Assembly (NCBI GenBank): GCA_946531435.1
Contig: CAMNAO010000004.1
Span: forward strand, 6,786 to 70,785
Reading direction: 5' to 3'
Source: an uncultured Clostridia bacterium
GTDB taxonomy: Bacteria; Bacillota; Clostridia; Oscillospirales; Oscillospiraceae
Length of the DNA: 64,000 nt
Both the position numbers and the translations under genes were made by a program. Shown one piece after another: positions 1,065 through 32,497 of this stretch. The stretch's first letter is position 1, and each line of letters starts with the position of its first letter. A model generated the notes under the pieces. It had not been told where the DNA came from, made no database searches, and saw only the letters and a program-made list of their open reading frames with translations.

Positions 1065-2153
1065 TCAGCGGTTCGCACCTCCCACCGGGGTCTTCCTGTA
1101 TATGAGCTCTCCCGTCTCCAGATTCCTCCGGAACTGAACCATAAAGCTCCAGATGAGGTCGATCTGCTTCGGGGCCTGAATATGGGGCATACCGAGGATC
1201 TGCCCGAATCTGGCAACATTGTCTCCGTTGATATTTTTGTAGTCACCCAACAGAATGTAGCTGTCCTCAAAAGGGCCGCCCCAGGTCTCATGGAGATCCA
1301 GGCCCAGCTTCCTCTTAACGGCATCGTCGGTGGTCTTGGTTAGTTCCACCATCTCTTTCTGGGTCAGCGGCTTGTAGTCCTTGATTTTTGCCACGTGTTC
1401 CATATAGAAGTTGAAGGCGCTTGCGCACTCCTCCGTGTTCAGCGGCCAGTAGTCCCCTCCGTCCTCCGTTCCCCCGATACAAATGATGGGCATCATGAGA
1501 TCGAAGTTTTCCACATAGTGGGACTGCAGCTCAGCATAGGATGGGCCCCGGAAGCTGTTGGGTCCCGGAGTAGGTGCAATGCAGGCGATCTTGTCCGGGT
1601 GGAGCATGGCCAGGCGCTGGGTGGCGCCCTCCCCTCCGGAAAATCCAAAGACGTAAACCCGCTCATAGTCCACGGGATACTCCTTCTCCTTCAAAAAATC
1701 CAGGATCCGCAGAAACTCTCTCTCCACTCGGGGATTGCCGTGGCCCGAGGCCGAGGGGCACACGGTGATGCACTGACCCATACCGGTGAGATGACCGAAG
1801 CCGTAAAACTCAGCGCCGAAGTTGTTCTCTCCACCCCCGTGAAGGCAGTACACCAGCGGAAACCGCTCCCCATCGTTCTGCTCCATCGGGCTCAGGACGG
1901 AAAACCGCATCTGTTCTTCTGTCCTGGCTTCATCGAAGAGCTCTTTCTTGACACCCTGCGAACGCCAGTACTCCAGCACCTCGGGGTTCATCTGGTCGTC
2001 TCCGCTGCCGTCCGGGTCGTTTTCCAGGTAAAACCGGTGCAGCTCTGTAATGCTGCGCCCCAGCTTCGTCTTCGGGAATCCGACAGGATCATAGGTTCCC
2101 TTCGCCCAGGCGTTCTCCAGTCCCGTATTCAGAAAATGATACTCTTTCCTCAT
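1065..2153 (-). CDS. alpha/beta-hydrolase, PHB-depolymerase/LpqC-like esterase, single domain (paralog F)
   Basis: Has LHGGG, the nucleophile elbow GFSGG, and the C-terminal MPH...WSFMVQFRRNLETGE motif shared with five other hydrolases here. The ATG at 2153 follows GGAGAGAAGG; the ORF-track start at 2159 is a TTG. No signal peptide. Confidence 0.75.
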   Translation of the reverse strand: MRKEYHFLNTGLENAWAKGTYDPVGFPKTKLGRSITELHRFYLENDPDGSGDDQMNPEVLEYWRSQGVKKELFDEARTEEQMRFSVLSPMEQNDGERFPLVYCLHGGGENNFGAEFYGFGHLTGMGQCITVCPSASGHGNPRVEREFLRILDFLKEKEYPVDYERVYVFGFSGGEGATQRLAMLHPDKIACIAPTPGPNSFRGPSYAELQSHYVENFDLMMPIICIGGTEDGGDYWPLNTEECASAFNFYMEHVAKIKDYKPLTQKEMVELTKTTDDAVKRKLGLDLHETWGGPFEDSYILLGDYKNINGDNVARFGQILGMPHIQAPKQIDLIWSFMVQFRRNLETGELIYRKTPVGGANR

Positions 2154-2183
2154 GTTCAATCCTTCTCTCCGTCTGCGGTGTGG

Positions 2184-3497
2184 TCACTCCTTGGGCTCCT
2201 TATCCATAATCTTCTCCACAACACGGATGTGGTCGGAGAAGAAGCGCAGGGCCTTGGCGTTCAATAGAGAGTCCGTCAGCCCATCTTTTCCCCCGGCCCT
2301 GCGAATGGCCTCCTCTTCGGAAACTCTCGCCAGCGCCGCGTTCCGTTTCACACTGCTTTCAAGCTCCTGCTCGGAAATGCCAAGGCCGTATTTCCGGATC
2401 AAATGATCGATGGCAATGGAGCGACGGACATGCTTCTCCGCATTGGGGCGGCACATGTCCAGGAATTCGTCCATGGTCTTTCCCTCGTCCTTCAGCAGCT
2501 CCGCCACAGTCTTTCCCTTGCCCGCCGCGGCATTTCGCAGGGCATCCAGGTATTCGTTCAGAACGGTCTCCACCATCACGTCGGGAAGTCTGCAGGTCAC
2601 TGTGGCTTCCAGTGCATCCTCGACGTGCTTCTCAAACATCTCACCGCAATGCCGGTCGTGGCGGTCCTGAATCTCTTTTCGCAGCTTCTCCCGAAACTCC
2701 GCCACCGTGTTGACCCTGCTGTCATGGATCATCTCCCGGCAATATTCATCGGTGCACGCCACCTGTTCACGAGCCCAGACGCCCCTCAGGCGGACCTTGA
2801 GATCCAGAACAAAGCCCCGAATCGCCTCCCGATGAAAGTCCTCCGGCATTGTCAGCTTCAGTGCCAGCTCATCGCCCTTCCTGCGGCCCAGGAGTGCCTC
2901 GTCCAATCCTGCGAAGAGCTGTCCGCTGCCCATGGGAAAGCGGCATTTGTCGGAGTGGTCATACTCAAACCGTTCACCCTGGTGGGTACCCGAGAAGCTG
3001 ATTTCAACGATGTCACCCATCCGGGCCTCCCGGTCGACCTCGTGGACCCACAGATGCTTGCGCATGTAGTCCTCGAGCGCTTCATCCACCTCGGCATCCG
3101 TCGTCACGACCACAGGCTTTTCCACGGTGATGCCCTCAATGCCGAAGGCCGGAAGATCGGGAAAGGTAGTAAACGACGCTTCAAAGCAGAATCCCTCAAG
3201 ATCCCCTCCGCGCACCACTGCGGAGGGTGGAGAGATGGGCGCCAGCCCCTTTTCCGCACAGGCCCGAAGCAGCAGTGCGTCCACCGCTTCTTTCCCGGCG
3301 GTTTTAATCAGCTCTCTGCCGAAAAAATCGGCGGCGGCTTCTATCGGTGCCCCGCCCGCGGGATAGCCGGGAACGGGCTTTTGCCGCTGCAGCGCATCGG
3401 CCGCTCCGGCAAGGAAGGTCCGCCATTCCTCGCCCTCCGTCGTCACCTTCATCGTCACCCGAAAACCATTATCTATTTGAAGGCTTATTAGTTCCAT
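2184..3497 (-). CDS. trigger-factor-like chaperone / FKBP-type PPIase paralog
   Basis: Collinear with trigger factor: N-domain, FKBP-like middle (MGDIVEISFSGTHQGERFEYDHSD...GSGQLFAGLDEALLG), helical C-arm. RBS GAGGAG lies 6 nt upstream. The ribosome-docking signature GFRxGxxP reads GYPAGGAP. Confidence 0.8.
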   Translation of the reverse strand: MELISLQIDNGFRVTMKVTTEGEEWRTFLAGAADALQRQKPVPGYPAGGAPIEAAADFFGRELIKTAGKEAVDALLLRACAEKGLAPISPPSAVVRGGDLEGFCFEASFTTFPDLPAFGIEGITVEKPVVVTTDAEVDEALEDYMRKHLWVHEVDREARMGDIVEISFSGTHQGERFEYDHSDKCRFPMGSGQLFAGLDEALLGRRKGDELALKLTMPEDFHREAIRGFVLDLKVRLRGVWAREQVACTDEYCREMIHDSRVNTVAEFREKLRKEIQDRHDRHCGEMFEKHVEDALEATVTCRLPDVMVETVLNEYLDALRNAAAGKGKTVAELLKDEGKTMDEFLDMCRPNAEKHVRRSIAIDHLIRKYGLGISEQELESSVKRNAALARVSEEEAIRRAGGKDGLTDSLLNAKALRFFSDHIRVVEKIMDKEPKE

Positions 3498-3693
3498 AGA
3501 ATCTCCTCATTTCTATCCTTCGGATACGGCCTGCGGCGCGGAAAAAGCCGGCCGCAGCGGGACCCCCCTATACGGCCGACTTTCCTGATACAGTGCTTCG
3601 TTCCGCAAGCTCCCTTGTCGGTCCCCACGCTCGGGCGGCCGGGTTCTTCCCCTTCTTCTCCGCCGGATCGGCGCCCCGTATTCCCTTTCATAC

Positions 3694-3722
3694 AGGGTAC
3701 ACGATAGCGCAGGTCCTGTCAA
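3694..3722 (-). promoter_or_regulatory. candidate sigma-A promoter (TTGACA-17 nt-TACCCT) ahead of a leader of about 190 nt for the trigger-factor-like gene
   Basis: On the minus strand, TTGACA sits at 3722-3717, followed by a 17-nt spacer and TACCCT at 3699-3694. It lies in a 280-nt non-coding gap inside an otherwise tightly packed cluster. Confidence 0.35.
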
Positions 3723-3777
3723 GCCGGGTCTGCAGGCGTGGGGAGGCGTCTCTCCTGACTGCCAGCGCGTCTGACAT

Positions 3778-5214
3778 TTATTTATAGAGAATCTTATCGA
3801 ACAGCTCGTTCATATGACGGCTGATCCTGCCGTCCAGGTCGTCCGGATGGGTGGTGGAGCTGTAAAAGGTAAAGGTGTCGTGGTCCTTGGCGTTGTTGCT
3901 GAGAAGATAGCCGCCGTTGAACATGGCATCACCGTGGCAGTGGGAAATGACCACCGTCTTTTTGAAGGGGGACTCCTCCTTCATCCTCCACCCGATCTCC
4001 GTATAGGGTTCCCCGGATACGCCGACCCAGGCCACGTCGCCGAAAACGGCGACCTGCATGTGCAGAGGCGATACGCCGTCCGGGTCATAGACCATGGTGC
4101 CCCGGGTCTCCTTCGGCGGCGTCCGGCCGTTCACCAGCAGCTCCGGATACCTTCGGTTGCAAAGATTGTCGGTAATGGACCAGTCCAGGGCGAAATTCGT
4201 ACCCACGTACTTGTGCCGCGGAAGGTTCAGGATATCACCCTCCGTCCTGATCTCAAAGCTGTCCTCGTACTCGGTGATGCTGTTCAAGGTACGGATGGTG
4301 TCGATGCCGTGCTCGCAGCCCAGGGTCATCATATTCTGATAGGCAAAACCAAAGGGCGGGTCAATGGGCTCGTTATAGCCGTCCAGCTCGTACTTGCGCA
4401 GATAGCCCATGGTACAGACGGGGTTGGTATCACCGGAGCTGCCGTTGGTCCAAAGGCAGACGCAGTCATTGCCGAACCTCTTCTCAACATATTCGCTGGA
4501 GACCCCGGGGAAATCCGGAGCGACCTTGTAGCAGCCGTCCACATCCGGGACCTCCGGGCGCAGACTGGTGGGATGGCAGCCGTAGTTTGTGACGGCGGCA
4601 ATCAGCTTGCCCTCCATATCCACAAACTTCATCACCGCCAGGGTCCTGTCCACGGGACCGCGGAAGTTACAACCCTCCATCCAGTGCCCGTCCTCAAACT
4701 GTACGTCACGATTGACGTTGATGTAGCTGTCACCCTCGGCAAACCCGAACTTTGCAGGCTGCAGGCGGGAGATCGCCAGCTCAATGCCCCCGATGACGGC
4801 GGGATGGACCACCTGGTTATAGTAATCGAACTGCAGGGCGTTGGTGGGATTGCGTCCCCATTTGATATGGGTGGAGTGGTTGTGCGTCCACACGCCGAGA
4901 ATATTCTCCGGCGGGATCCCGAAGGTTTCATGAATCTCATTCTTGAATTCGTCGTCCAGGCTCGGCCCTGAATCCAGGTTCAAAAACAGGAATTTCTTCT
5001 TCCCGTCGTCGATCACCACGATGCGGGTGTAGATATCCATGAAGATCCCCACCGTCTTGTAGGGAACCGGCTTCCAGGGAATCGACGGATAGCCGTGAAG
5101 GCCGGTCGTCGGTTTTTCCTTCGGTTGCATTTCCGCTTTGTAGTCCTCCAGCGGGAACATCTCCGCAGGGGGGTTGATGCACATTTTGGCCGCGCCGACT
5201 CTGATTTTTCCCAT
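3778..5214 (-). CDS. neutral/alkaline ceramidase-like amidohydrolase (paralog P1)
   Basis: N-terminus MGKIRVGAAKMCINPP, with His motifs WTHNHS and NYGCHPT plus GSSGD, typical of bacterial neutral-ceramidase N-domain proteins (recalled). RBS GAAGGAGG. No signal peptide. Confidence 0.6.
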   Translation of the reverse strand: MGKIRVGAAKMCINPPAEMFPLEDYKAEMQPKEKPTTGLHGYPSIPWKPVPYKTVGIFMDIYTRIVVIDDGKKKFLFLNLDSGPSLDDEFKNEIHETFGIPPENILGVWTHNHSTHIKWGRNPTNALQFDYYNQVVHPAVIGGIELAISRLQPAKFGFAEGDSYINVNRDVQFEDGHWMEGCNFRGPVDRTLAVMKFVDMEGKLIAAVTNYGCHPTSLRPEVPDVDGCYKVAPDFPGVSSEYVEKRFGNDCVCLWTNGSSGDTNPVCTMGYLRKYELDGYNEPIDPPFGFAYQNMMTLGCEHGIDTIRTLNSITEYEDSFEIRTEGDILNLPRHKYVGTNFALDWSITDNLCNRRYPELLVNGRTPPKETRGTMVYDPDGVSPLHMQVAVFGDVAWVGVSGEPYTEIGWRMKEESPFKKTVVISHCHGDAMFNGGYLLSNNAKDHDTFTFYSSTTHPDDLDGRISRHMNELFDKILYK

Positions 5215-5289
5215 AGGTTCCTCCTTCTTTCACTCTGATCCTTGTCAGTTTTTCTCCGGGAAGGGATCCAAGAGGATCCCTTCTATCGG

Positions 5290-6261
5290 TTAAGGCCGCG
5301 GAAAAATCTTTCCCAGCTCTCCGCAGAAATCGTCGGGGAGCTTCAGCTCCGCAGCGCGAAGAGAGGACTGCAGCTGCTCCACGGTCCTGGGCCCGGAGAG
5401 GACCGCTGAAACCGCGGGATTCCGGAGCACCCAGGCCAGGGCGACGTTGGATTCGCTCTCCCCCAACTGGCCGCAAAGCTCATGATACTTGGTAAGCCTG
5501 GCCCGCTCCGCATCGGACAGCCTGCCGGAGAACTTTTGGGATCTGCCTCCCTGGGCGATGGTGCCGAAGATGCTGCCGGAGAGCATGCCGCCTGAAAGAG
5601 GGCTGTGGACAATGACGCCGATGCCCTTCTCCTTACAGAGGGGAAGCACATCCTTCTCCGCCTCCCTGGCCAGCAGGCTGTAGCGATGCTCCTCCGTAAC
5701 CAGTCCCAGGATCTGCTTTCTGTCCGCGGTGGCCTGGGCGTCGGAAATATTCTCTGCGGTAAAGTTGGAGGAGCCGACGTAGTCGAATTTCCCCCGATAG
5801 AACTCCCGGTACAGCGCCTCCCAGGCCTCGGTCCAGGTGCAGTTGGGGTCGTAACCGTGCAGATACAGGATCTCGACCCTGTCGGTCTGAAGGCGTCTCA
5901 GGCATGCGTCCAGATGACGGCGGATTTTATAGGTGGAATACCCCATCACATCATTGGGCCCGTCATTGGGATCATTCATGGCGTTGAAAATCTTGGTGGC
6001 CAGGACGGTCTTCTCCCGGCGGCCGCCGCCAAGGGCAAACCATCTGCCGATGATCTCCTCGGTCAGTCCCTTCCGGTTGAAGCCGGTGTCCGGCCGAAAG
6101 CCGTACATGTTGGCGGTGTCAAAGAAGTTGATGCCCGCCTCCAGGGCCGCGTCCATGATGCGGCAGGCCTCCTTCTCATCGGTGGTGGGTCCGAAATTCA
6201 TGGTGCCGAGGGCGACCCGGCTGATTTTCATACCCGTACGGCCAAGATAAGTATATTCCAT
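5290..6261 (-). CDS. aldo/keto reductase
   Basis: MEYTYLGRTGMKISRVALGTMNFG is a typical AKR N-terminus. Its ATG overlaps the TGA of the upstream hydrolase by 1 nt (TGATG), suggesting translational coupling. The ORF-track start at 6264 is a TTG. Confidence 0.9.
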   Translation of the reverse strand: MEYTYLGRTGMKISRVALGTMNFGPTTDEKEACRIMDAALEAGINFFDTANMYGFRPDTGFNRKGLTEEIIGRWFALGGGRREKTVLATKIFNAMNDPNDGPNDVMGYSTYKIRRHLDACLRRLQTDRVEILYLHGYDPNCTWTEAWEALYREFYRGKFDYVGSSNFTAENISDAQATADRKQILGLVTEEHRYSLLAREAEKDVLPLCKEKGIGVIVHSPLSGGMLSGSIFGTIAQGGRSQKFSGRLSDAERARLTKYHELCGQLGESESNVALAWVLRNPAVSAVLSGPRTVEQLQSSLRAAELKLPDDFCGELGKIFPRP

Positions 6262-8006
6262 CAATAAAGCTCCTCAATTTTATGCGTCTGGGGATCTCTG
6301 CGGAAGCGTCGCAGGAAATCCCAGGAGAGTGTGCACATCTTCGCCGTCACCGTATGGGGCATGTTCTGCTGCCGGATCAGCCGGACGTGCTTCTTCCCGT
6401 CCACATTGACAAAGTCGCAGATATAGTGCTCGATCCCGTCCGCCCACAGGGTACGGAATTCATCGGCGGCCACGCAGGTGGTCCTCTGCGTGTAATCCTC
6501 GCTGTCAAAGGCCGCCAGGATCTCCTCCTCACTCTTCACCGGCAGGCGGTAATTGCGCATCATCTGCTGCCACTGGGGCACCCAGCGATTCCGCTTGTCC
6601 TCCTCGTTCTTGGGGAAGCCGGATTCACAGAGGCCGGTGATGCAGACCGTGGGCACGTCATAGTTCGCGATGTTGTAGTCCTTTGTGTAATCCGGCCGGG
6701 CGTTCATCCCTCCGGAGACGTAACTGAAGCCCAGGAGGGCGACGGCGGCCGGGAAGTCGGGGTTCCGGTCCGCCATGGCGAAGGAGAAGTATCCGTCATG
6801 GCTGTGGCCCGTCAGGTAGACGCGGCTGAGATCAAAGCAGAACTCCTCGGCATTGTTTTTCACGATGTCGATGGCCCGGTCATTGCTGACCACGTCCTCA
6901 AGGACGAAGAACACCAGCGCGCATTCGCCCTGGGCCGCAATATCCAGCCACTCTCCCAGGTAGCTGTGGGCCGTCACCGCCAGATGCTCGTTGCCCTCGT
7001 AGACCTCCTGAAGCACCAGGACCACGGGAAGCTTCGTCCTTTCCTCATATTGCTGGCGGGGGCAGGCGATGATATACCTCTCGCCCAGCTCATTGAAACG
7101 GATGGCGTAGATGAGCCCCTTTTTGCGCATCTCCTCCTGGAAGGCCGGGTCATTCACGGTGTCATATTTGTATTCCAGCATAAGGCCGTCCACCATATGC
7201 TTTCCCACCTCGGAATGGACGAACCATTCCCGGTCAAACCGTCCCTCGTTCATCCCGTAGGTCATGACCAGGCCGCGGCCCAGGCTGTCACAGTTGCCCC
7301 AGCGCCCCCGGATGTTAAGGACCGGCAGCTTCAGATCCCCGAAGTACTCGATGAGGCTGTCGGGGTCCACCGGATTGCCCGCCTCATCCTTGAACGCAAG
7401 GCCGGGAACCGAGGAAAGAGGCCCCTCCTCCAGCTGGGCGGAAACGTCCATATACATATGGGGGATATCACAGGGGAAGAGGATGGAGAACTCCTGGATG
7501 ATATTAAAGTAGATCATATCATAGCAGGGGAACTGGTCCACCAGAATCACCAGAATAAAATCCATGCTGCGCTTCAGCATCTCCACCTTGTCCCAGTGGC
7601 GCTTGAGGGCCCGCATCGTCCAGCGGGGATCCTTCTCATCCTCGCAGCCGAAATACATGTAGACAGGGAGCTTTTTCCACTCGTCGATGGCCTTCTGGGG
7701 GCAGAGGCAGATCCAACAGTGCTCCGGTATGTCGCCGGTTCCACCCTGGCCGGTGCATAAATAGTGAAGTCCGGCCGCATTGAGCTCCGCCACAATGCCG
7801 GGATCGTCGATTCCGTGGGTCTTATGGCGATAGAGCGGGTGCTGATGCAGGTCACCGCTGTATGCGTAGGTCGGCTCGTAATCGCTGGGCTGGACCTTCG
7901 CGTTCTCCTGCATATGCCGGATGAGATGGCCCAGGGGGGCCACACGGTCCTTCCAGTACTCGGTCTGCCAGAGCTCAATGTTGGGATAGCTGTAGTATTT
8001 GTTCAT
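6261..8006 (-). CDS. tandem pseudo-esterase + esterase alpha/beta-hydrolase (paralog A)
   Basis: Start MNKYYSYPNIELW follows GGGAGG. The C-terminal half has FDLSRVYLTGHSHDG (nucleophile elbow) and NMPH...WDFLRRFRRDP. The N-terminal half aligns to it, but the elbow reads CDIPHMYMDVS. No signal peptide. Confidence 0.75.
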   Translation of the reverse strand: MNKYYSYPNIELWQTEYWKDRVAPLGHLIRHMQENAKVQPSDYEPTYAYSGDLHQHPLYRHKTHGIDDPGIVAELNAAGLHYLCTGQGGTGDIPEHCWICLCPQKAIDEWKKLPVYMYFGCEDEKDPRWTMRALKRHWDKVEMLKRSMDFILVILVDQFPCYDMIYFNIIQEFSILFPCDIPHMYMDVSAQLEEGPLSSVPGLAFKDEAGNPVDPDSLIEYFGDLKLPVLNIRGRWGNCDSLGRGLVMTYGMNEGRFDREWFVHSEVGKHMVDGLMLEYKYDTVNDPAFQEEMRKKGLIYAIRFNELGERYIIACPRQQYEERTKLPVVLVLQEVYEGNEHLAVTAHSYLGEWLDIAAQGECALVFFVLEDVVSNDRAIDIVKNNAEEFCFDLSRVYLTGHSHDGYFSFAMADRNPDFPAAVALLGFSYVSGGMNARPDYTKDYNIANYDVPTVCITGLCESGFPKNEEDKRNRWVPQWQQMMRNYRLPVKSEEEILAAFDSEDYTQRTTCVAADEFRTLWADGIEHYICDFVNVDGKKHVRLIRQQNMPHTVTAKMCTLSWDFLRRFRRDPQTHKIEELY

Positions 8007-8062
8007 AAAAACCTCCCTGTTTATCAGAATCATTCTGTCCGGTTCCCGGTTTTTACGGGTCC

Positions 8063-9877: not shown

Positions 9878-9899
9878 GCAGTTTCCCCTCCTCAGCGCT

Positions 9900-14900: not shown

Positions 14901-14935
14901 AGCATCTTTCTCCTTTTTCAAGCAAGCCCGAAAAA

Positions 14936-19043: not shown

Positions 19044-19127
19044 TGTGATCCTCCTGTTCTTAAGGGATTGCTCCCTGAAATTACCGTCTTCTTCCCCGGT
19101 CCATGGACGCCATCGGGGATTCCCTTC

Positions 19128-20255: not shown

Positions 20256-20279
20256 AGGAAAGCCTTTCTGCATACAGTG

Positions 20280-23156: not shown

Positions 23157-23157
23157 C

Positions 23158-24171: not shown

Positions 24172-24187
24172 CGCTCACAATCCGACA

Positions 24188-25042: not shown

Positions 25043-25060
25043 ATCGCGTTCTCCCTTCTC

Positions 25061-25981
25061 TCAGTTGAAGGTAATTCTCGGGTCGATAATCGTATATACG
25101 ATATCGGCCAGCATGTTGCAGACAACAAGCAGTGCGGCGGTGAACAGCAGGAAGGACTGAACCAGCTGATAGTCTCGCTGGTTGATTCCGGTGATCAGCG
25201 CCTGTCCCATGCCGGGCAGATTGAAGATGTTCTCAACCACGACGGCGCCGGAAACCAACCGGCCGATCTGACCGCCAATGTTCGTTACGATGGGCAGCAG
25301 AGCGTTCTTCAGTGCGTACTTGAAATAGGTCTTATTCCGGGAGATGCCGCGAGCGCGGGTGGCGGTGACATAGTCCTCCCGGAGGACGTCCACCATGCCG
25401 GAGCGCATCAGACGGGTCTGGTGCGCCGCGGTGCCGAAGCCCACACAGAGGCACGGCATGATCAGGCTCCTGGCTCCCTGGACGCCTTGGACCGGCAGCC
25501 AGCCCAGCTTCACAGCGAAGATCAGAATCAACATGAAGCCCAGCCAGACCGTGGACATGGACTGACCCACCACAGCAAAGAACATAGCGAAAAAGTCAAC
25601 GCCGCTCCCCTGATGGATGCCGGCGATGACCCCAAGGATTATTGAGAAGACGCAGGCCCAGAGGATGCCCAGAACGCTGATGCGCAGCGTCTGCGGAATA
25701 CGGATGGCAAACAGTTCAGATACAGGCATGGAAAACGCCCAGGAATACCCCAGATCACCATGAAGCACGTTGTTCATATAGGTGAGGTACTGCTGAACGA
25801 CAGGCTTGTCAAGGCCCATGCGTACGCGCATATCCTCCACTTCCTGGTCTGAGGCAAGCTCACCGGCAAGCATTCTCGCCGGATCGGCGCCATCCAAACG
25901 GACCAGAGCAAAGGAGAAGATTGAGATCGCGATGAGGACGATCACTGACGCGATCAATCGTTTACCCAATTGTCTAAGCAT
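25061..25981 (-). CDS. ABC transporter permease (OppB/DppB-like)
   Basis: Typical N-terminus MLRQLGKRLIASVIVL and EAA loop YVTATRARGISRNKTYFKYALKNAL. Confidence 0.9.
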   Translation of the reverse strand: MLRQLGKRLIASVIVLIAISIFSFALVRLDGADPARMLAGELASDQEVEDMRVRMGLDKPVVQQYLTYMNNVLHGDLGYSWAFSMPVSELFAIRIPQTLRISVLGILWACVFSIILGVIAGIHQGSGVDFFAMFFAVVGQSMSTVWLGFMLILIFAVKLGWLPVQGVQGARSLIMPCLCVGFGTAAHQTRLMRSGMVDVLREDYVTATRARGISRNKTYFKYALKNALLPIVTNIGGQIGRLVSGAVVVENIFNLPGMGQALITGINQRDYQLVQSFLLFTAALLVVCNMLADIVYTIIDPRITFN

Positions 25982-26022
25982 AGAATTCTTCCCTCATCAT
26001 TCGGAGTTTGTCTGTTTAAGGA

Positions 26023-26053
26023 GGGGGCAGATGCCCGTCGGGCATCCGCCCCC
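26023..26053 (-). other. intercistronic stem-loop after the substrate-binding-protein (SBP) gene (14 bp including one G-U pair)
   Basis: gggggcagatgccc (26023-26036), loop gtc, then gggcatccgccccc (26040-26053). No U-tract. Its position downstream of the SBP gene is typical of ABC operons. Confidence 0.5.
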
Positions 26054-26086
26054 CAATCTGTCATGCGGGAATATGGATCCGGAAAC

Positions 26087-27790
26087 TCAGTCGTTGACGA
26101 CGATGGCGTGGCAGTCCAGCACGGTGGCGTTGTGGTTCAGAATGTTGGTAACATTTTTCTGGCAGGCAAAGATCTTCTGCGGCGCGTACAGGTACAGGTT
26201 GGGCTGGCACTCGTCAGCCTCGATCTCGAAGATCCTTCCAAGCAGCTCGGTCTGCTTCTCGGGAGAGACGGTGATCTGCAGCTCCTGGCAGAGGCCTCTC
26301 AGCTCCTCATTCTGGTAACCGGTGTTGAACTTGTCGTTGCCGATAACCTCGGGATAGGTCAGTCTCTGGTAAGGTGCGGAGGCACCGATGTTGGCCAGAA
26401 CAATGTCGAAGTCACGGGCGTCACGGGCCGCGTCATACAGGGAGACATCCAGGGGCTCCAGCTTGACGTTGATGCCCGCCTCCTGCCACATCATCTGCAG
26501 GGCCTGAGCAACTTCGTTGCCGTTGGAGACCGTAGACAGGGTATATACCAGTCTGAACTCACGTCCGTCATAGTTGGCCTTCTGCAGGAACTCTTTGGCC
26601 TTGTCCAGGTTGTACTCATACTTGGGGGCATCCTCATAGCCGTAGTAACCGGGCTGTGCGCCGCAGGTGCTGGGAACCGCAAAGCCATCCATGAGGGAGG
26701 AAACCAGCAGTTCACGGTCGATGGCGTAGTTGAGCGCACGGCAGAGGTCCTTGTTCTCGAAGGCGTCACCGGCGCCACAGGCCAGCTGCAGGAAGACCTG
26801 GTTGGCGGAGGGAAGCACGTTGACAGAGATGGAATCGATGCCGCTGAGATTGCCAAGCTCGGAGGTGGGGACGTTGTCGATGATGTCGACCTCACCGGTC
26901 TTCAGGGAGGCGATACGGGTGGTCTCCTCGGGGGAGTTCTCGAAGGTCAGATACTTGACGTTGGTATAGTAGCCGGTCTTCCTGTAGCCCCAATAGCCGT
27001 TCTCATCCTCTCTCAGCTTCAGAGTGACCTTGGAGTTGGTCAGGTCCACCTCGTCATAGGTGTAGGGACCGGATCCCACGGGGCACTGCCAGTAGGCGTC
27101 CCAGCCCATGGACTCGATGGTCTCAACGGGCATGATCTGAAGGCTGGCGCCGAAGTTGGCGACGAAGGCAGGCATGGGCTTGGTGAACTTGATGCGGATG
27201 GAATACTCACCGGTCTCCTCGATGCTGTCCAGATAAGGTCTCCAGGCCTTTACAATGCCGTCGGGGTAATACTCGCTGGCGCGAAGGTTCTCCATGGCCC
27301 ACCAGAGGTCATGGGCCGTCATATGAACGCCGTTGGTGAAATACACATCGTCGCGGATGGTGACGTCGCAGGTCAGATAGTCGTCGGACAGCTGGTAGTC
27401 GGTGGCAAGATAGTTCTCATACTCAAAATTCTCAGGGTTCACCCAGATCGGGCCGTCATAAACACAGTACATCTGGGATCCCAGGAAGTCACCGCCGGTG
27501 GCGGTCCACTTCTGAAGCGTGTGAGCCGTGGAGCCCATGTGATAGACCACGGTCTTGTCGGCGTCCGCTTCGGTCCAGGTCTCCTCCTTGGCGGCCGCCT
27601 GCTCCATGGTCACGCTCTGGGTCGTGCCGTCGCTGACTGGAGCTGTAGCGGGCTTATTCCCGGAGGGCTCGGACGTCGATGGCGTTCCGGTCTCCCCCTT
27701 GCCGCCGCAAGCCGCGAGAGCCATAGCGCTAATGGCCGCGGTGCTGAGGCCGGCAACCTTCAGGAAGTCTCTACGGGTTAAGGTCTTCAT
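26087..27790 (-). CDS. ABC transporter substrate-binding lipoprotein, family 5 (peptide/nickel/oligosaccharide type)
   Basis: ATG at 27790 follows AAAGGAG. The signal MKTLTRRDFLKVAGLSTAAISAMALAACGG carries a twin-arginine consensus (TRRDFLK) and a lipobox (LAAC). The mature part is typical of family-5 SBPs. Confidence 0.9.
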   Translation of the reverse strand: MKTLTRRDFLKVAGLSTAAISAMALAACGGKGETGTPSTSEPSGNKPATAPVSDGTTQSVTMEQAAAKEETWTEADADKTVVYHMGSTAHTLQKWTATGGDFLGSQMYCVYDGPIWVNPENFEYENYLATDYQLSDDYLTCDVTIRDDVYFTNGVHMTAHDLWWAMENLRASEYYPDGIVKAWRPYLDSIEETGEYSIRIKFTKPMPAFVANFGASLQIMPVETIESMGWDAYWQCPVGSGPYTYDEVDLTNSKVTLKLREDENGYWGYRKTGYYTNVKYLTFENSPEETTRIASLKTGEVDIIDNVPTSELGNLSGIDSISVNVLPSANQVFLQLACGAGDAFENKDLCRALNYAIDRELLVSSLMDGFAVPSTCGAQPGYYGYEDAPKYEYNLDKAKEFLQKANYDGREFRLVYTLSTVSNGNEVAQALQMMWQEAGINVKLEPLDVSLYDAARDARDFDIVLANIGASAPYQRLTYPEVIGNDKFNTGYQNEELRGLCQELQITVSPEKQTELLGRIFEIEADECQPNLYLYAPQKIFACQKNVTNILNHNATVLDCHAIVVND

Positions 27791-27823
27791 GTGCAATCTC
27801 CTTTTTCATTTTTTCGGTACCGG

Positions 27824-29077
27824 TTAAGGTGCCGTTATTCTTTTTTCTTGCCCCTTGCCGCCTTCGGCGTACAGCTCCCTGGGCTTGTCGAAAAGCTCTT
27901 CCTCCGCCAGGACCGCCGCGCCAAGAAGCACCGGGTCTGATTTGAGACTGGTATAATCGACGGTGAGATCCTCCGCCAGCTTGGGCAGGACCCGCTCCTT
28001 TAGGGTCTGCCTTACAGCCTCCAGGAAGGGCTCCCCTCCACCGGTCATCTCGTCTGTGATGACAATCCGCTTTGGATTGTAGAGGTAGACTGCGTTGGCC
28101 AGGCCGCAGCCCAGGTACCTGCCCGCCTCCCGCACCTTTTCCGTTGCGTAGGCATCTCCCAGGCGCATATGGGCGAACACCGTCTTTGCATCGATATGCT
28201 TCTCCGCGTTCAGGCTGCTTTCAGGGCGGTTGATAAGGCCGCTTTTTACATTCTCGGAAAACGCAAGGGATGAGCAGTACAGCTCCAGACAGCCGTAATT
28301 CCCGCAGGAGCACCTGGGGCCGTCGCTTTTGATCGACATGTGGCCCAGCTCTACGGCGGTTCCATCGGAGCCGTGAAGCAATCTGCCGTTCACCACAAGA
28401 CCCGCGCCCACGCCCTCGCCCACGTAGACGCTGAGAAGCGTTCCCTGCTGGCTGCGGAAGCGTCCATCTGTCCCGTAATACCACTCAGCACAGGCACTGG
28501 CGTTGGTATCGTGCTCAATCACCACAGGGATGCGGAAGGCCTGGCCCAAACTGTCAACGATGTTGATTTTGTCCCAGCCCTCAAATTGGGACATCATGGC
28601 GATACGGCCTTGTTCCCTCAAGTACGGACCGGGTACGGCAACCCCGATGGCCCGTACGTCTCCGTAGCGCTCCATATAGTCCTTACACACATGGATCATC
28701 TCTTCGATGACCTGGGCCGGCTTTGTCTTACCCGCCTCAAAGGGCACCATTCGGCTCTCCAGCAGGCTGCATCGAAGATCAAAAACACCGACCGTAAAGG
28801 AGCGCCTCGCCAGCTTGACACCGATGATACGACAGAAGCTCCTGTTAAGATGGATCTTGATGGCCCGTCGTCCCTTTCTGCCGGTTGACAGATCCCCCTC
28901 CACGACGAGATTCGCTTCGATCAGTTCAGAAATAATCTTGCTGATGGAGGCCTGCGTCAAGCCGATCTCCTCCGCAAGCTCGGTGCGGGTGCAGACATCC
29001 CGCTGCGACAACAGCCGCAGAACAAGAAAGCGATTTCCCGCCTGCATGGATTCGCTGTTCGTGCCGGAAGCTTTCAT
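27824..29077 (-). CDS. ROK-family transcriptional regulator (ROK1)
   Basis: N-terminal winged HTH (LSQRDVCTRTELAEEIGLTQASISKIISEL) plus a ROK sugar-kinase-like fold with the Zn motif CSCGNYGCLE. The ATG at 29077 (MKASGTNSESMQAGNR) parallels the ROK2 N-terminus; the ORF-track start is a TTG. Confidence 0.85.
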   Translation of the reverse strand: MKASGTNSESMQAGNRFLVLRLLSQRDVCTRTELAEEIGLTQASISKIISELIEANLVVEGDLSTGRKGRRAIKIHLNRSFCRIIGVKLARRSFTVGVFDLRCSLLESRMVPFEAGKTKPAQVIEEMIHVCKDYMERYGDVRAIGVAVPGPYLREQGRIAMMSQFEGWDKINIVDSLGQAFRIPVVIEHDTNASACAEWYYGTDGRFRSQQGTLLSVYVGEGVGAGLVVNGRLLHGSDGTAVELGHMSIKSDGPRCSCGNYGCLELYCSSLAFSENVKSGLINRPESSLNAEKHIDAKTVFAHMRLGDAYATEKVREAGRYLGCGLANAVYLYNPKRIVITDEMTGGGEPFLEAVRQTLKERVLPKLAEDLTVDYTSLKSDPVLLGAAVLAEEELFDKPRELYAEGGKGQEKRITAP

Positions 29078-29109
29078 CTCAACCGTCCCGCCTATGATCA
29101 ATCTCTGTA

Positions 29110-29262
29110 TTACTTATACCAAATAATTAATTAACCCGCGCTATTTCTCAACGTCGTTAATTATTAACATCGTTAATTTATCATGTTTGTGAAGTAATTG
29201 CAATCCTTTATTCATCATTGTCACAATTTTGCGCACAATTGACAAATTGAAGTGAAGATTCA
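29110..29262. promoter_or_regulatory. AT-rich promoter/operator region upstream of ROK1 and the importer
   Basis: Sharp GC drop. Contains palindromes TTAATTAA and GTTAAT-t-ATTAAC, the direct repeat TCGTTAAT twice, and repeated ACAATT/CAATTG units. Confidence 0.35.
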
Positions 29263-29316
29263 CAGCACTTTGACGAACAGCCCCGCCTGCGTTTTTGAAG
29301 ATCGGCTGCATAATGC

Positions 29317-29361
29317 AAAAGAGACAGGAGCCGGGATTTCTTCCCGTCTCCTGTCTCTTTT
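29317..29361 (-). terminator. intrinsic terminator after hydrolase E
   Basis: A 16-bp stem with one mismatch (gagacaggagccggga / tcccgtctcctgtctc), loop tttct, flanked by AAAA and TTTT. Confidence 0.7.
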
Positions 29362-29376
29362 GATCTCCGGCTCCTT

Positions 29377-31113
29377 TCAGAAGCACTCGCGGATCCCGCC
29401 CGTCTCCGGATCCCTGCGGAATCTGCGGAGGAATCCGAAGGTCAGCCACGGCATATGCGCGGTCGTTCCATGGGGCATGTTGTCCAGGGTCACGACGCGC
29501 AGGTGGGTTTTCCCTTCCCTGTTGACGCAGTCCCCGATATAGCACTCATCCCCCTCAAAATACAGGGTCTCACTGTGATCCGTGGGGACTCCCAGCTTCC
29601 GGTCGGCCTTGGAGGGGCTGCGGGAGATCCCCAGGATCTCCTCCGGGCTCTTCGGCTCGCAATTGAAGGCGCGAAGTCGGTTCTGCCAGAGGGTGATCCT
29701 TCGTTCCTCGCTGAGGAAACGGCTCTTCTCCAGGTCGATGAAGCTGTTCTCCCAGTCGCCGTTGATGTTGATAAAGGGCATGTCTACCTTTGCCATCTCA
29801 TCCAGTTCCTCCCCGCTCAGCTTCGGGGCCGCGTGGCCGTCTCCGTATCCGTGGTTTCCGCCCATCACACCGCAGCCGGCAAGGAACGTGGGATGCCTGC
29901 GGTAAAACTCCATGGCATAGCCTCCGTTGTGGGAGTGACCGGTGATATACAGCGCTGTCCGATCCAGAAAGGGGTACATCTCCCCGGCCTCCTGCACGAG
30001 ATCGATGAGCAGCTCGTTGTCCTCCACATCCTCCAGGACGAAAAACAGCAGCATCAGATCCCCCTGGGCAGCGATCTCCAGGTATTCGTACCACATCGCG
30101 TAAGCGGACAGGACCGTGTGCCGGTCCGCGGGGTTGATCTCCTGCATGATGCACATGCACGGCAGCGGCTCCTCCGGGCGGTCAAGGGCGGATTTCGGGA
30201 CAACGGTGACCCAGCCGCGGCCGTCCGTTTCATGATACCGCGCCTCGATTCCCATGGTATCGAACAGTTCCCGGACGCCGGGCTCGTCAACCCGATCAAA
30301 GGCGTATTCCAGATGAATGGCGGCGGCACAGCGTCTGCCGATATGGCTGTAGATCAGGCGGTCATAATCCAGCGGGACCGTGCCGATCCCCCCGTTATAA
30401 AAATTTGCAAGCTGCAGGCTGTTGCGGCTGGCCCATTTCCCGGTGATGTTGATCGCACGCACACCGTAATCGAAGAAGTTCTCAATAACGGGCGTTTCCC
30501 CGGGACAGTATTTCTCGATAAACCCCGGGACCTCCTCCAGCCGGCAGCCGGCGGCGCAGAAGCGCTCGATATCCAGATACAGCCGTCCGTGCCTGACCCG
30601 ATAGCGCTGGGTAAGCTCACGCAGAATGATCACCGCGAGCTCCGTCCGGTCGGATCTGCAGATGGTCGTGAAGACGAGCAGATTCCCTGCGGCGGCGGCC
30701 GCCTCCAGGCGATCCCTGTAGATCTCCACGGCATCCAGGGCATAATAGGGATCGGAGCGATAGTCGACCTCATTCAGGATAAGAAGAGTTTTGGGGTTGT
30801 TTTCCCTGCCCTCAAGAACGCTGTCCGGGATCAGGGCCATCCAGTGCTCCCCCGCGTGATTCAGGACAAGGCGGCAGCCCTTCTCTTCCCACTCGCGGAA
30901 CAGGGAATCCGGAAGCCAGGCGTTCAACCGTTTGTCAAAGGCGGCGTTCTCCTCCATCGCCCTCCGTTCCTCCGCGCTTCTCGGAAGCGGCTCATCCCGG
31001 TAGAGGCCCCTCTCGGCGGTGTAGGCAGTCAGATCAGCCAGGGGGCTGATCTTCTCCCGCCAGGCCTCCTCCCGCCAGAGCTCCATGTTTTCATATCTGT
31101 AGTACCGATTCAT
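29377..31113 (-). CDS. tandem pseudo-esterase + esterase alpha/beta-hydrolase (paralog E)
   Basis: N-terminus MNRYYRYENMELW. Active elbow RTALYITGHSHNG; degenerate half HGRLYLDIE. C-terminus NMPH...FGFLRRFRRDPETGGIRECF. Own RBS GGAGG. Flanked by terminators on both sides. Confidence 0.75.
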   Translation of the reverse strand: MNRYYRYENMELWREEAWREKISPLADLTAYTAERGLYRDEPLPRSAEERRAMEENAAFDKRLNAWLPDSLFREWEEKGCRLVLNHAGEHWMALIPDSVLEGRENNPKTLLILNEVDYRSDPYYALDAVEIYRDRLEAAAAAGNLLVFTTICRSDRTELAVIILRELTQRYRVRHGRLYLDIERFCAAGCRLEEVPGFIEKYCPGETPVIENFFDYGVRAINITGKWASRNSLQLANFYNGGIGTVPLDYDRLIYSHIGRRCAAAIHLEYAFDRVDEPGVRELFDTMGIEARYHETDGRGWVTVVPKSALDRPEEPLPCMCIMQEINPADRHTVLSAYAMWYEYLEIAAQGDLMLLFFVLEDVEDNELLIDLVQEAGEMYPFLDRTALYITGHSHNGGYAMEFYRRHPTFLAGCGVMGGNHGYGDGHAAPKLSGEELDEMAKVDMPFININGDWENSFIDLEKSRFLSEERRITLWQNRLRAFNCEPKSPEEILGISRSPSKADRKLGVPTDHSETLYFEGDECYIGDCVNREGKTHLRVVTLDNMPHGTTAHMPWLTFGFLRRFRRDPETGGIRECF

Positions 31114-31161
31114 TCTCGCCTCCGCATTCTTTCCGCTCCGTTTCCCGGGCAGAGTATTTGC

Positions 31162-31174
31162 TTAACTTTGTTAA
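31162..31174. promoter_or_regulatory. candidate operator palindrome TTAAC-ttt-GTTAA upstream of hydrolase E
   Basis: Perfect 5-bp arms. The half-site resembles the GTTAAT/ATTAAC palindrome upstream of ROK1. Confidence 0.3.
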
Positions 31175-31220
31175 CAAAATCATACCCTATTCCGCACAAA
31201 AACGCAAGCAGATTCTGCTG

Positions 31221-31257
31221 CAAAAAAACACCGCCGTTTTTGTGGAAACGGCGATGT
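31221..31257 (-). terminator. intrinsic terminator after ROK2
   Basis: Minus-strand RNA reads ACAUCGCCGUUU-CCACAA-AAACGGCGGUGU followed by U7. Confidence 0.7.
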
Positions 31258-31279
31258 TCTGTCTGATGCATTCCTTCTG

Positions 31280-32497
31280 TTATTCATCTCTGTAAAGCAT
31301 GCGGGGGTTCTTGAATACCTCCGCGGTGGCTATGGCGGCGGCACCCATCAGCATCGGATCCTCCCCCAGATGCGAATAGTGGATGGACAGGCCGGCAAAA
31401 AGCTTTGGCAGGGTACGCTCCTGAACGGTCTCGAGGATGGAGGCGAGAAGGATATCACCGCCCTGCTTGATCACGTCGGCAAGAATAATCTTCTCGGGAT
31501 TGTAGATATAGACGATATTTGCGAGCCCGACTCCGATATAATGCCCAAGCTCCCGCACCTTCTGAATGGCATAGCTGTCCCCGCGACGCATGTGCAGGAA
31601 CGCGACCTCCGCCGTGATCTCTTTTTCAGTATTCAGAGAGCTCTCCGGATGCTGGGGCAGATCACGCACGACGGACGCCGCGAAAGCGGGGGCCGAGCAG
31701 TAGGTCTCCAGGCAACCGCGGTTGCCGCAGATACATTTTGGGCCGTTCATATCGATGGTCATGTGCCCCACCTCTCCGAAGATGCCGTTAGAGCCGTGAA
31801 GAATGACCGAATCCTCGATCACCCCGGCGCCGACTCCGTCATTGGAGAGGAAGCTAACCAATGTGCCATGCTCCTTGAAGCGCTCCGAGGAGCCGTAGAG
31901 GAACTCGGCATATACGGCGGCATTGGTGTCGTGCTCCACAACCACAGGGATCTCAAAGCAATCCGTCAGTTCTTTTTGAAAATCTACCATCTCCCAGCCG
32001 CTGAAACCGCTCATCAGCGCAATCCTGCCGGCATCGCGGAGATAGGGTCCCGGCACCGCGACGCCGATGCCACGCACGGAAGGGTATTCTTTCAGAAGGG
32101 AGCGAACGGTCTCCTTGATTTTGCGCATGACGTCGTCCGGCTTCAATAGTCCCTTGGGAAGCTTCACCTGTACACTCTTCAGCACCGCTGCTTGAAGGTC
32201 AAACACTGCCGCGGAAAAATACCTTCTGGCAAGCTTGACGGCGATCACATGGAAATAATCGGAAACAAGAGAGAGCTCAATCCTCCGTCTGCCGATCTTC
32301 CCGGCGGCACCGAGCTTTTCGCTGACCACGCCTGCTTCAATGAGCTCATCAACGATCTTGCTGATAGACGCCTGCGTGAGGCCCATCATTTTTGCGAGTT
32401 CGGATCTTGAAATCGACCCTCGCCGCAGAATAAAGCTCAGGGCCAGCGCGCGGTTGCCCGCCTGCATCGTTGAAACATTTTGTCCGGAAATTGCCAT
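31280..32497 (-). CDS. ROK-family transcriptional regulator (ROK2, paralog of ROK1)
   Basis: HTH LRRGSISRSELAKMMGLTQASISKIVDEL, Zn motif CICGNRGCLE, collinear with ROK1. Confidence 0.85.
   Translation of the reverse strand: MAISGQNVSTMQAGNRALALSFILRRGSISRSELAKMMGLTQASISKIVDELIEAGVVSEKLGAAGKIGRRRIELSLVSDYFHVIAVKLARRYFSAAVFDLQAAVLKSVQVKLPKGLLKPDDVMRKIKETVRSLLKEYPSVRGIGVAVPGPYLRDAGRIALMSGFSGWEMVDFQKELTDCFEIPVVVEHDTNAAVYAEFLYGSSERFKEHGTLVSFLSNDGVGAGVIEDSVILHGSNGIFGEVGHMTIDMNGPKCICGNRGCLETYCSAPAFAASVVRDLPQHPESSLNTEKEITAEVAFLHMRRGDSYAIQKVRELGHYIGVGLANIVYIYNPEKIILADVIKQGGDILLASILETVQERTLPKLFAGLSIHYSHLGEDPMLMGAAAIATAEVFKNPRMLYRDE

Follow-up and report, generated by a model that had tools for sequence, protein, structure and literature searches.

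In the opine operons of Agrobacterium (acc for agrocinopine, moc/agc for mannityl opines), a family-5 Opp-type importer for a non-peptide, sugar-derived conjugate is combined with cytoplasmic hydrolases, lactone- or lactam-opening steps and a sugar-responsive repressor. The Opp-type sugar uptake systems of Firmicutes and Thermotoga likewise feature an Opp-family transporter under ROK control, and in the Thermotoga and chitobiose systems the imported carbohydrate is processed in the cytoplasm. This contribution describes a hydrolase locus that resembles these systems. It comprises 23 genes (g01 to g23) at positions 1065–32497 of a 64,000-nucleotide stretch of contig CAMNAO010000004.1 (assembly GCA_946531435.1) from an uncultured Clostridia bacterium of the Oscillospiraceae; the whole stretch is referred to as the window, and all genes g01 to g25 mentioned below lie on its minus strand. 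The logic of the locus would be that of the opine and Opp-type sugar operons, with importer, cytoplasmic hydrolases and sugar-type repressor, whereas its enzyme families appear to be new. We propose, with a probability of roughly 0.4, that this locus of an anaerobic Clostridia-type bacterium is catabolic and substrate-inducible, and that it is an expanded version of an inter-phylum module by which an acylated carbohydrate-type conjugate is imported and de-esterified in the cytoplasm.

Import and export systems

The importer is encoded by g20 to g16. The product of g20 (26087–27796) is a family-5 solute-binding lipoprotein (PF00496, 213.5 bits), and g19 to g16 (22173–25981) code, according to Pfam, for OppB, OppC, OppD and OppF, i.e. 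two permeases and two ATPases with oligo_HPY tails. Together, the five proteins carry the domains of an Opp/Dpp (PepT) importer, namely PF00496, PF00528 with PF19300 and PF12911, and PF00005 with PF08352 twice. The closest solved relatives of g20 include the opine-binding proteins AccA (agrocinopine) and AgaA (agropinic acid) as well as YliB/GsiB (glutathione), with E values of 1e-26 to 1e-21, and the oligopeptide-binding proteins OppA, AppA and DppA score below these opine and glutathione binders. Note that the similarity to AccA (E 1e-26) is only at the level of a superfamily subgroup and that, unlike the opine operons, the locus has neither an AccF-type phosphodiesterase nor moc-type Amadori/oxidoreductase genes. 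To our knowledge, the three hydrolase families described below (long esterases termed hydL, tandem metallo-beta-lactamase-fold (MBL) proteins and ceramidase-fold proteins) do not occur in opine operons. The Opp-type sugar systems of Firmicutes and Thermotoga differ from the locus in that no glycoside hydrolases are present here, and the solved chitooligosaccharide-binding proteins are only distantly related to g20 (1e-06).

Hydrophobic N-termini were found only on the binding protein and the membrane subunits. This is in agreement with a preliminary description of the locus, made from the sequence without database searches, according to which the hydrolases lack signal peptides and the binding protein alone is exported. 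The g20 protein begins with a twin-arginine signal (TRRDFLK...LAAC; 17.1 with TIGR01409 against a cut-off of 16.7), and its orthologues in other loci are 38–42% identical. This twin-arginine translocation (Tat)-type lipoprotein signal is confined to the window; in nine other loci the orthologous protein bears a signal of the Sec type.

An exporter that the preliminary description had overlooked is encoded by g25 (33972–35372), outside the reported interval. It is a MATE efflux transporter (PF01554 and TIGR00797, above cut-off). MATE genes 44–48% identical to g25 adjoin hydL or MBL genes in 12 of the 18 loci compared below, and we therefore count g25 in despite its position; judged by this linkage, the functional unit probably includes the exporter.

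Conservation of the core in other genomes

The proteins of the window were compared by tblastn with fetched neighbourhoods, and open reading frames were clustered over 18 non-redundant loci, i.e. the window and 17 others. The neighbourhoods originate from a 2.47-Mb Sphaerochaetaceae contig, from metagenome-assembled genomes (MAGs) of an Oceanispirochaeta and an Anaerolineales bacterium, from Lachnospiraceae and Oscillospiraceae MAGs, from an infant-gut Clostridiaceae MAG and from Clostridium sp. chh4-2 and MCC353. A core recurs beside an esterase of about 590 amino acids in the 17 other loci, which belong to Firmicutes, Spirochaetota and Chloroflexota. This core consists of the Opp importer, one to four hydL copies, MBL hydrolases, an aldo-keto reductase (AKR), a lactonase and the MATE exporter, joined in some loci by a Zn-dependent alcohol dehydrogenase (Zn-ADH). 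The hydL-type esterase was present in 18 of 18 loci (39 copies), the Opp ATPases in 13, OppC and the MATE exporter in 12 each, OppB and the single-domain MBL protein in 11 each (the latter in 20 copies) and a family of about 300 amino acids, termed U300, in 10. Nine loci each have the AKR, the binding protein and the tandem MBL protein, eight the lactonase and six the Zn-ADH. Less frequent are type-B carboxylesterase, MFS, YdjC and 2-hydroxyacid dehydrogenase (five loci each), GntR (four) and ROK, ceramidase-fold and FMN_dh proteins (three each). PatB (g07), PfkB (g08), trigger factor (g02) and the M28 peptidase (g24) were found, among the loci examined, in the window only; other loci carry M20 or S10 peptidases in place of M28.

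The 23 genes, which had been presented as one unit open to a check of neighbourhood conservation, are thus not co-conserved as a whole. The core withstood this check in the 18 loci, but only the importer, the esterases, the MBL proteins, the AKR, the lactonase and the MATE exporter recur widely, and the periphery (PatB, PfkB, trigger factor, M28) does not. The preliminary description knew of no characterised pathway with this composition, and no characterised orthologue was found in the PDB, Pfam, NCBIfam, the source annotations and the literature searched: homologues are annotated at their source as ‘hypothetical’ or generically, literature searches with family and NCBI product names gave nothing relevant and strain names yielded only a genome announcement.

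The membrane and ATPase subunits of the importer are 60–81% identical in the loci of Spirochaetota, Chloroflexota and most Firmicutes, which suggests lateral spread of the module; in the Clostridium-type loci L015, L016 and L019, OppB and OppC are only 48–59% identical. No match was obtained in plasmid records. The module was found in river-sediment, marine-type spirochaete, Hadza and infant gut genomes, and its composition varies. In locus L020 a pair of ceramidase-fold proteins occurs together with hydL, the middle-length esterase hydM, tandem MBL, AKR, 2-hydroxyacid dehydrogenase, M20 and S10, and in L021 a ceramidase-fold protein is accompanied by four PF00756 esterases, a carboxylesterase, Opp, lactonase and MATE genes. 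In L026 (6019–12044) the module MBL–AKR–ceramidase-fold–MFS–MATE adjoins genes for a sugar ABC transporter of the CUT2 type, for an aldose epimerase and for a two-component system of the AraC type. The hydrolases and the exporter are thus found with more than one kind of importer. Clostridium sp. chh4-2 and MCC353, both cultured from the human gut, have a compact 13-kb operon with the order OppBCDF–carboxylesterase–three MBL–U300–lactonase–hydL–MATE.

U300, with members at L013 17545–18441, L016 7874–8830 and L022 13565–14458 among others, is absent from the window, and Pfam, NCBIfam and PDB sequence searches with it gave nothing above threshold. A mutarotase-like nature of U300 was not supported by profile comparison with one DUF4432 protein, which is a weak, single-sequence test.

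Serine esterases

The claim of six paralogous alpha/beta-hydrolases was borne out by all-against-all BLASTP. Four of them, the hydL paralogs, are about 580–600 amino acids long and mutually 28–53% identical: g05 (6261–8033, paralog 1), whose stop codon overlaps the start of g04; g06 (8063–9877, paralog 2), which served as the family reference for structure modelling, Foldseek and the family alignment; g15 (20280–22028, paralog 3), 53% identical to g05 and part of a segmental duplication; and g22 (29377–31113, paralog 4), 28–34% identical over the full length to g05, g06 and g15 and assigned to no Pfam family. The start of g15 had to be revised and is now placed at 22028 (MNRYY...). The other two are g11 (hydM; 14936–16234, 432 amino acids, motif GHSQGG), whose earlier start at 16477 gives way to about 16234 as called on the identical public contig, and g01 (hydS; 1065–2159, 364 amino acids, motif GFSGG), a paralog of g11 and of the C-terminal hydL domain with weak matches to models of the polyhydroxybutyrate (PHB) depolymerase type. 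With the PHB depolymerase models TIGR01840 and NF050058, g11 scored best of the six (42.3 against a cut-off of 107.85 and 62.1 against 150, respectively), and the hydL paralogs reached at most 28 bits. Pfam, NCBIfam and PDB sequence searches with the long esterases gave nothing above threshold.

An AlphaFold (AF2) model of g06, built from 44 homologues, had a pLDDT of 93.4. According to Foldseek the C-terminal half is nearest to PHB depolymerase 8daj (1e-11), with about half of the protein covered and a TMq of about 0.3; further neighbours are fungal and Bacteroides feruloyl and acetyl-xylan esterases (8iy8, 9j07, 5vol). In the family alignment the motif GHSHNG (G401-H-S403-H-N-G406) and H574 are invariant and D538 is near-invariant; hydL has an alpha/beta-hydrolase fold with a serine nucleophile elbow and a catalytic histidine. 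The C-terminal domain thus shares its fold, the Ser-His(-Asp) set and the elbow with PHB depolymerases and the feruloyl and acetyl-xylan esterases of family CE1. Unlike this clade, hydL scores far below the family cut-offs, is cytoplasmic, has GHSHNG in place of GLSAGG at the elbow and possesses an additional, degenerate N-terminal copy. Profile-profile comparison with hhalign (99.6% probability, E 6.6e-25) showed residues 66–241 to be homologous to the C-terminal hydrolase domain, from which they have diverged; in this copy other residues stand in place of the nucleophile elbow, part of which is deleted. This indicates that hydL is a tandem of a pseudo-hydrolase and a presumably active hydrolase domain, in g06 and likewise in g05, g15 and g22. 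None of the six paralogs has an N-terminal hydrophobic segment, which sets them apart from secreted granule depolymerases.

The family is rare. A database of 5.8 billion proteins contained 73 hydL homologues, all unnamed or ‘hypothetical’, and an exhaustive search of 1.84 billion cluster representatives with a hidden Markov model gave 145 matches at E < 1e-30, of which about 50 are full-length two-domain proteins. The genome scan was run with a narrowed alignment.

Tandem metallo-beta-lactamase-fold protein

g10 (13164–14921), referred to as MBL2, contains PF00753 twice, as expected for the double MBL protein reported before, but only the first domain is intact. Domain 1 has the motif HGHLDH, and H73, H75, D77, H78, H162, D181 and H221, the residues expected of MBL metal ligands, are conserved; in domain 2 the motif has degenerated to HVGIDH with loss of the second histidine. 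An AF2 model of g10 (pLDDT 94) was aligned by Foldseek over a single MBL-sized stretch (about 210–310 columns, TMq about 0.3), and the targets listed were all single-domain proteins. The best named matches of MBL2 are hydroxyacylglutathione hydrolases, with weak matches to the lactonases AttM, AidB and AiiA. Beyond the generic MBL domain models, MBL2 has no family-level assignment in Pfam or NCBIfam and no source name. In the 5.8-billion-protein database 72 matches were found (70 at E <= 1e-60), often on contigs with hydL; the two families share contigs and are similarly rare. Natural fusions of about 1000 amino acids that join a tandem MBL protein to a hydM-type esterase occur among metagenomic proteins (P0110, P0111, P0113) and argue for a functional link between g10 and g11.

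Ceramidase-fold proteins and the pairing of active and degenerate modules

Three ceramidase-like amidases had been reported. Two of them, g03 (3778–5214, cerA copy 1) and g13 (17619–19043, cerA copy 2, 67% identical to g03), are candidates for short ceramidase-fold Zn amidases, while the third, g12 (16251–17600, cerB), is a degenerate paralog that is 21–24% identical to both. g03 matched PF04734 (36.6 against 32.1) and neutral ceramidase 2zws of P. aeruginosa (1e-05). g13 and g12 gave no match to PF04734 and are connected to g03 by BLASTP alone; for g12, Pfam, NCBIfam and PDB sequence searches gave nothing above threshold. In the g03/g13 family H111, H113, R169, H214 and Y436 are invariant and E402 is at least 90% conserved, and all six are retained in g13. 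This His/His/Arg/His/Glu/Tyr set presumably corresponds to the Zn-ligand and catalytic residues of the ceramidase crystal structure. In g12 four of the positions are changed (H111 to R, H214 to Q, E402 to R and Y436 to I), and the orthologue of g12 in L020 (5902–7245) has R, Q, R and I/V at the same places. g12 lacks four conserved putative metal-ligand positions, three of them invariant and one at least 90% conserved, and is therefore probably not an amidase; the degenerate copy is kept beside an intact one in two genomes.

The resemblance to neutral/alkaline ceramidases is limited to the catalytic N-terminal domain. The proteins of the family comprise 449–478 amino acids compared with 646–688 in the solved ceramidases, and g03, g12 and g13 (about 450–480 amino acids) lack both the C-terminal domain and a signal peptide. 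Their genomic context is one of esterases and sugar-type genes, not of lipid metabolism.

Judged by conserved motifs, each of three unrelated hydrolase folds in the locus (hydL, MBL2 and ceramidase) is represented by a putatively active module together with a degenerate one. This pairing had gone unnoticed in the preliminary description.

Accessory enzymes and regulators

g04 (5290–6261, probable ATG start at 6261) is an AKR12-like aldo-keto reductase (PF00248, 200 bits) and a full-length relative of AKRtyl/AKR12D1 (297 bits, E 1e-87), its closest solved relative, followed by AKRs that epimerise deoxynivalenol (DON; 1e-41 to 1e-44). AKRtyl is the NADPH-dependent tylosin C20-aldehyde reductase of Streptomyces and acts on a glycosylated lactone; g04 belongs to a different phylum and context. 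AKR12D enzymes are broad-range aldehyde reductases (PMC10923870), so that the similarity does not identify the substrate. Orthologues 50–56% identical to g04 lie beside hydL in several loci, and the AKR gene is translationally coupled or adjacent to hydL.

g14 (19128–20273) is a seven-bladed beta-propeller lactonase (PF10282, 160.5 against 21.7 bits) with orthologues of about 33% identity in eight of the 18 loci. It shows weak similarity to 6-phosphogluconolactonases and to the gluconolactonase PpgL, with the equivalog models far below cut-off, and its own substrate may be a sugar lactone formed along the pathway instead of the imported compound. g09 (12084–13124) belongs to the Zn-dependent medium-chain dehydrogenases of the sorbitol dehydrogenase/ketose reductase/threonine dehydrogenase type (PF08240 and PF00107, PDB neighbours) and has an orthologue of 73% identity in L005, L006 and L018. 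g08 (11112–12074) is a PfkB sugar kinase (PF00294, 195.6 bits) that matches fructokinase structures at 1e-49 and the NCBIfam fructokinase model with 204 against a cut-off of 450. The former names ‘polyol dehydrogenase’ for g09 and ‘fructokinase’ for g08 therefore correspond to the best matches, but the NCBIfam equivalog scores are below the curated cut-offs. g07 (9900–11078) is a pyridoxal phosphate-dependent C-S lyase of the PatB/cystalysin type, just below the cut-off of TIGR04350 (336.7 against 340) and related to cystalysin (1e-98) and PatB 6qp3 (5e-82).

The two ROK regulators reported before were recovered as g21 (27824–29101; PF00480, 192.8 bits, with a helix-turn-helix domain) and g23 (31280–32497; PF00480 with an N-terminal winged helix of the MarR type). 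They are 49% identical (BLASTP), both have the repressor architecture of PF00480 fused to MarR/HTH_24, and g23 is NagC/Mlc-like, below cut-off.

g02 (2184–3497) is a trigger-factor paralog that scores 217.2 against 180.2 with TIGR00115 and has all three domains (Trigger_N, FKBP_C, Trigger_C). The window is the sole locus with such a paralog and also the sole one in which the binding protein has a Tat signal; g02 might be a PceT-like Tat chaperone. Outside the reported interval, g24 (32664–33905) codes for an M28 metallopeptidase (PF04389, 119.5 bits) that is not conserved in related loci, and its membership in the locus is doubtful.

Proposed pathway and alternative explanations

We assume that the locus works in the catabolic direction and that the steps would follow one another in the order given here. 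The binding protein g20 and the transporter g19–g16 would take up a small, multiply esterified conjugate, presumably of the carbohydrate type. In the cytoplasm the four hydL proteins, hydM, hydS and the tandem MBL protein would strip acyl groups at different positions, and in this genome the two putative Zn amidases g03 and g13 would also strip N-acyl groups. The remaining sugar, polyol or sugar-acid core would be passed through the AKR12-like reductase, the beta-propeller lactonase, the Zn-dehydrogenase and the PfkB kinase to central metabolism. The acid set free, whose acyl moiety may be aromatic or toxic for another reason, would be expelled by the MATE exporter, and the ROK regulators would sense a sugar-type product. 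The earlier view of an imported conjugate that is taken apart in the cytoplasm stands in so far as the hydrolases are cytoplasmic and fed by an importer, but the idea of a single conjugate with ester, amide and lactone bonds and a polyol goes beyond this and is an inference of that description.

A carbohydrate-type core is favoured because of the regulators found in the loci (ROK, GntR-UTRA and LacI), because of recurrent accessory genes (YdjC, GFO_IDH_MocA, AP_endonuc_2, kinases of the FGGY, PfkB and ROK types, DUF4432, and an aldose epimerase with a CUT2 transporter) and because the relatives nearest to g20 bind opines and glutathione. From the conservation of the MATE pump it would seem that the product is toxic or cannot be fermented. 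In one locus a reductase with the domains FMN_bind and FAD_binding_2 is located directly upstream of hydL; we take this to be the domain architecture of hydroxycinnamate reductases, which makes it reasonable to guess that the acyl group is a plant phenolic. Several findings weigh against the pathway as drawn. The lack of glycoside hydrolases in the cluster renders an oligosaccharide core unlikely, there is no aldolase or dehydratase to complete a sugar-acid route, the assignments of g08 and g09 are below curated cut-offs, and conservation in other loci is lacking for PfkB, PatB, trigger factor and M28. With the MBL2 model, Foldseek retrieved only generic single-domain MBL proteins, which give no hint of a function. 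Moreover, the peptidases (M28, M20, S10) and the 2-hydroxyacid and FMN-dependent dehydrogenases of related loci would fit a depsipeptide substrate equally well.

In such a depsipeptide or acyl-peptide route the Opp system would import a peptide-like natural product with ester, amide and possibly lactone bonds, esterases, MBL protein and amidases would linearise it, peptidases would finish the degradation and the 2-hydroxy acids would be oxidised. The architecture of the transporter, the M28 peptidase of the window and the M20 and S10 enzymes of L020, the D-2-hydroxyacid dehydrogenase in five loci and the FMN-dependent one in three, PatB as an enzyme of aminotransferase fold and the candidate ceramidase-fold amidases would all be accommodated. 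We nevertheless regard this route as unlikely, for the regulators and accessory enzymes are mostly of the carbohydrate type, the peptidases are not conserved between loci, oligopeptide binders score below the opine and glutathione binders that are nearest to g20, and the AKR, the lactonase, the Zn-ADH and the sugar kinases would be left unexplained. Somewhat more improbable is a lactone-centred pathway that would start from a uronic or aldonic acid in ester or lactone form and in which the hydrolases would be lactonases and esterases, and the AKR, 2-hydroxyacid dehydrogenase, Zn-ADH and kinase would form a reductive route of the uronate/idonate type. Four folds capable of lactonase activity do recur (MBL, beta-propeller PF10282, PTE and alpha/beta-hydrolases including DLH), g09 scores against L-idonate 5-dehydrogenase, MBL2 has its weak lactonase matches, and the AKR and 2-hydroxyacid dehydrogenase families are presumably those of ketogluconate and idonate metabolism. 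Every equivalog score is, however, far below cut-off, dehydratase, aldolase and gluconate kinase are missing, and in structure hydL comes closest to esterases of carbohydrates and polyesters rather than to lactonases.

A very low probability is assigned to the processing of thiol conjugates or thioesters, by which glutathione-like S-conjugates would be imported in a GsiB-like manner, de-esterified by a glyoxalase-II-like MBL protein and an esterase-D-like enzyme, and cleaved by PatB as a beta-lyase. The matches of g20 to GsiB/YliB and of MBL2 to hydroxyacylglutathione hydrolases point in this direction, as do S-formylglutathione hydrolases among the fold matches of hydL, the hydL elbow GHSHNGH, which we take to resemble the esterase D motif, and the proximity of PatB to cystalysin and cysteine-S-conjugate lyases. 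These similarities are all at superfamily level, PatB is absent from all other loci, a gamma-glutamyl transferase is missing and the carbohydrate-type accessory genes would be without a role. We give equally little credit to a detoxification or resistance island in which esterases and MBL proteins would open the rings of ester- or lactone-containing antibiotics or mycotoxins, the AKR would reduce aldehydes or ketones and the MATE pump would provide efflux. The relationship of g04 to AKRtyl and the DON-epimerising enzymes and the conserved exporter would suit such an island, as would an origin from livestock rumen, which the label of the public contig may indicate, whereas a dedicated high-affinity importer together with sugar kinases and dehydrogenases points to nutrition; the module also occurs in genomes from river sediment, marine-type spirochaetes and Hadza and infant guts, and the AKR12D enzymes have a broad range (PMC10923870). 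The locus might finally be not one system but a set of independent operons (regulators; importer and core hydrolases; amino-acid/sugar block; chaperone) that share a strand by chance. This is improbable. Only a subset of the genes is conserved together, a hairpin terminator follows g22, four junctions have gaps of 166–280 nt and PatB, PfkB, trigger factor and M28 are unique to the window; on the other hand, the gaps from g21 to g03 do not exceed 144 nt, ribosome-binding sites and two coupled junctions are present, a hydL–X–cerA block is duplicated inside the locus, and the ceramidase-fold pair accompanies hydL, hydM, MBL2 and AKR in L020 and a ceramidase-fold protein accompanies Opp, lactonase and MATE in L021.

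A wider and tentative proposal is that the locus represents an undescribed, mobile catabolic system, shared between phyla, for ester-rich small molecules without a known bacterial degradation pathway, candidates being sugars, polyols and sugar acids esterified with plant phenolic or acyl groups. Such a system would contribute at least three new enzyme families (the pseudo/active two-domain esterase, the tandem active/degenerate MBL protein and U300), in each hydrolase family an active form would be paired with an inactive one, and the product would leave the cell through a dedicated MATE pump. Tannins, hydroxycinnamoyl esters, acyl-sugars, glycolipids, siderophore trilactones, muropeptides, lipid A, N-acyl-homoserine lactones (AHLs), macrolides and trichothecenes were weighed as substrates, and the evidence cannot discriminate among them; siderophores, AHLs and lipid A were dropped as candidates because they are at odds with the type of transporter or with the carbohydrate-type accessory genes.

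Anaerobes of gut, rumen and digesters have many conserved loci of unassigned role, and the present one ties very rare families to an importer and an exporter. The combination of rare families, dedicated transport in both directions and occurrence in three phyla probably marks a real, unrecognised nutrient or xenobiotic niche. Identification of the substrate would provide a function for families without representatives in Pfam, NCBIfam or the PDB and an explanation for the active/degenerate pairing in three unrelated folds, and might yield new cytoplasmic esterases and lactonases for plant-ester or polyester chemistry. The compact version in two cultured human-gut Clostridium isolates makes the question experimentally accessible.

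Locus layout and neighbouring genes

The 23 minus-strand genes of the preliminary description were reproduced by the listing of open reading frames and by Pfam and NCBIfam scans. Their tight packing is reflected in intergenic distances of at most 39 nt at 16 of the 22 junctions; the remaining distances of the cluster are 75, 84, 105, 144, 166 and 275–280 nt. The larger gaps are those after g23 and after g24 (166 nt each), after g22 (275 nt) and before g02 (280 nt). Both coupled junctions were found as described, a TGATG stop/start overlap of g05 and g04 at 6261, with a GAGGAG ribosome-binding site upstream, and a 1-nt gap between g17 and g16 at 23157. The duplicated hydL–X–cerA block comprises g05–g04–g03 (3778–8033) and g15–g14–g13 (17619–22028) with about 75% nucleotide identity; the middle gene X is the AKR in one copy and the lactonase in the other.

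Scans for promoter and terminator consensus sequences gave no more sites than expected from shuffled sequence and were set aside with the exception of one strong hairpin. This inverted repeat at 29316–29362 (minus strand), just downstream of g22, has 21-nt arms of 95% complementarity and a 5-nt loop, and is probably a terminator that separates g22 (and g23) from the g21 operon. g21 is probably the first gene of a long operon. The highest-scoring promoter-like site of the region is at 35444–35415 near g25, and weak sites lie near g21 at 29245–29217 and 29151–29123, in a scan that as a whole was not above shuffle expectation. No Rfam family was found across the whole window.

A 28-nt inverted repeat is located at 572–638. 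The downstream end of the cluster is flanked, on the opposite strand, by a radical-SAM/SPASM gene and a flavodoxin-like gene (window 23–565, plus strand; L001 19313–20437). Upstream of the cluster, further minus-strand genes at 37859–48395 include a 928-amino-acid Fer4/Pyr_redox_2 oxidoreductase, a DUF4003 protein, an NAGPA phosphodiester glycosidase (41124–42056), a PF00756 esterase (44208–45134) and a fumarate-reductase-like flavoprotein (46485–48395).

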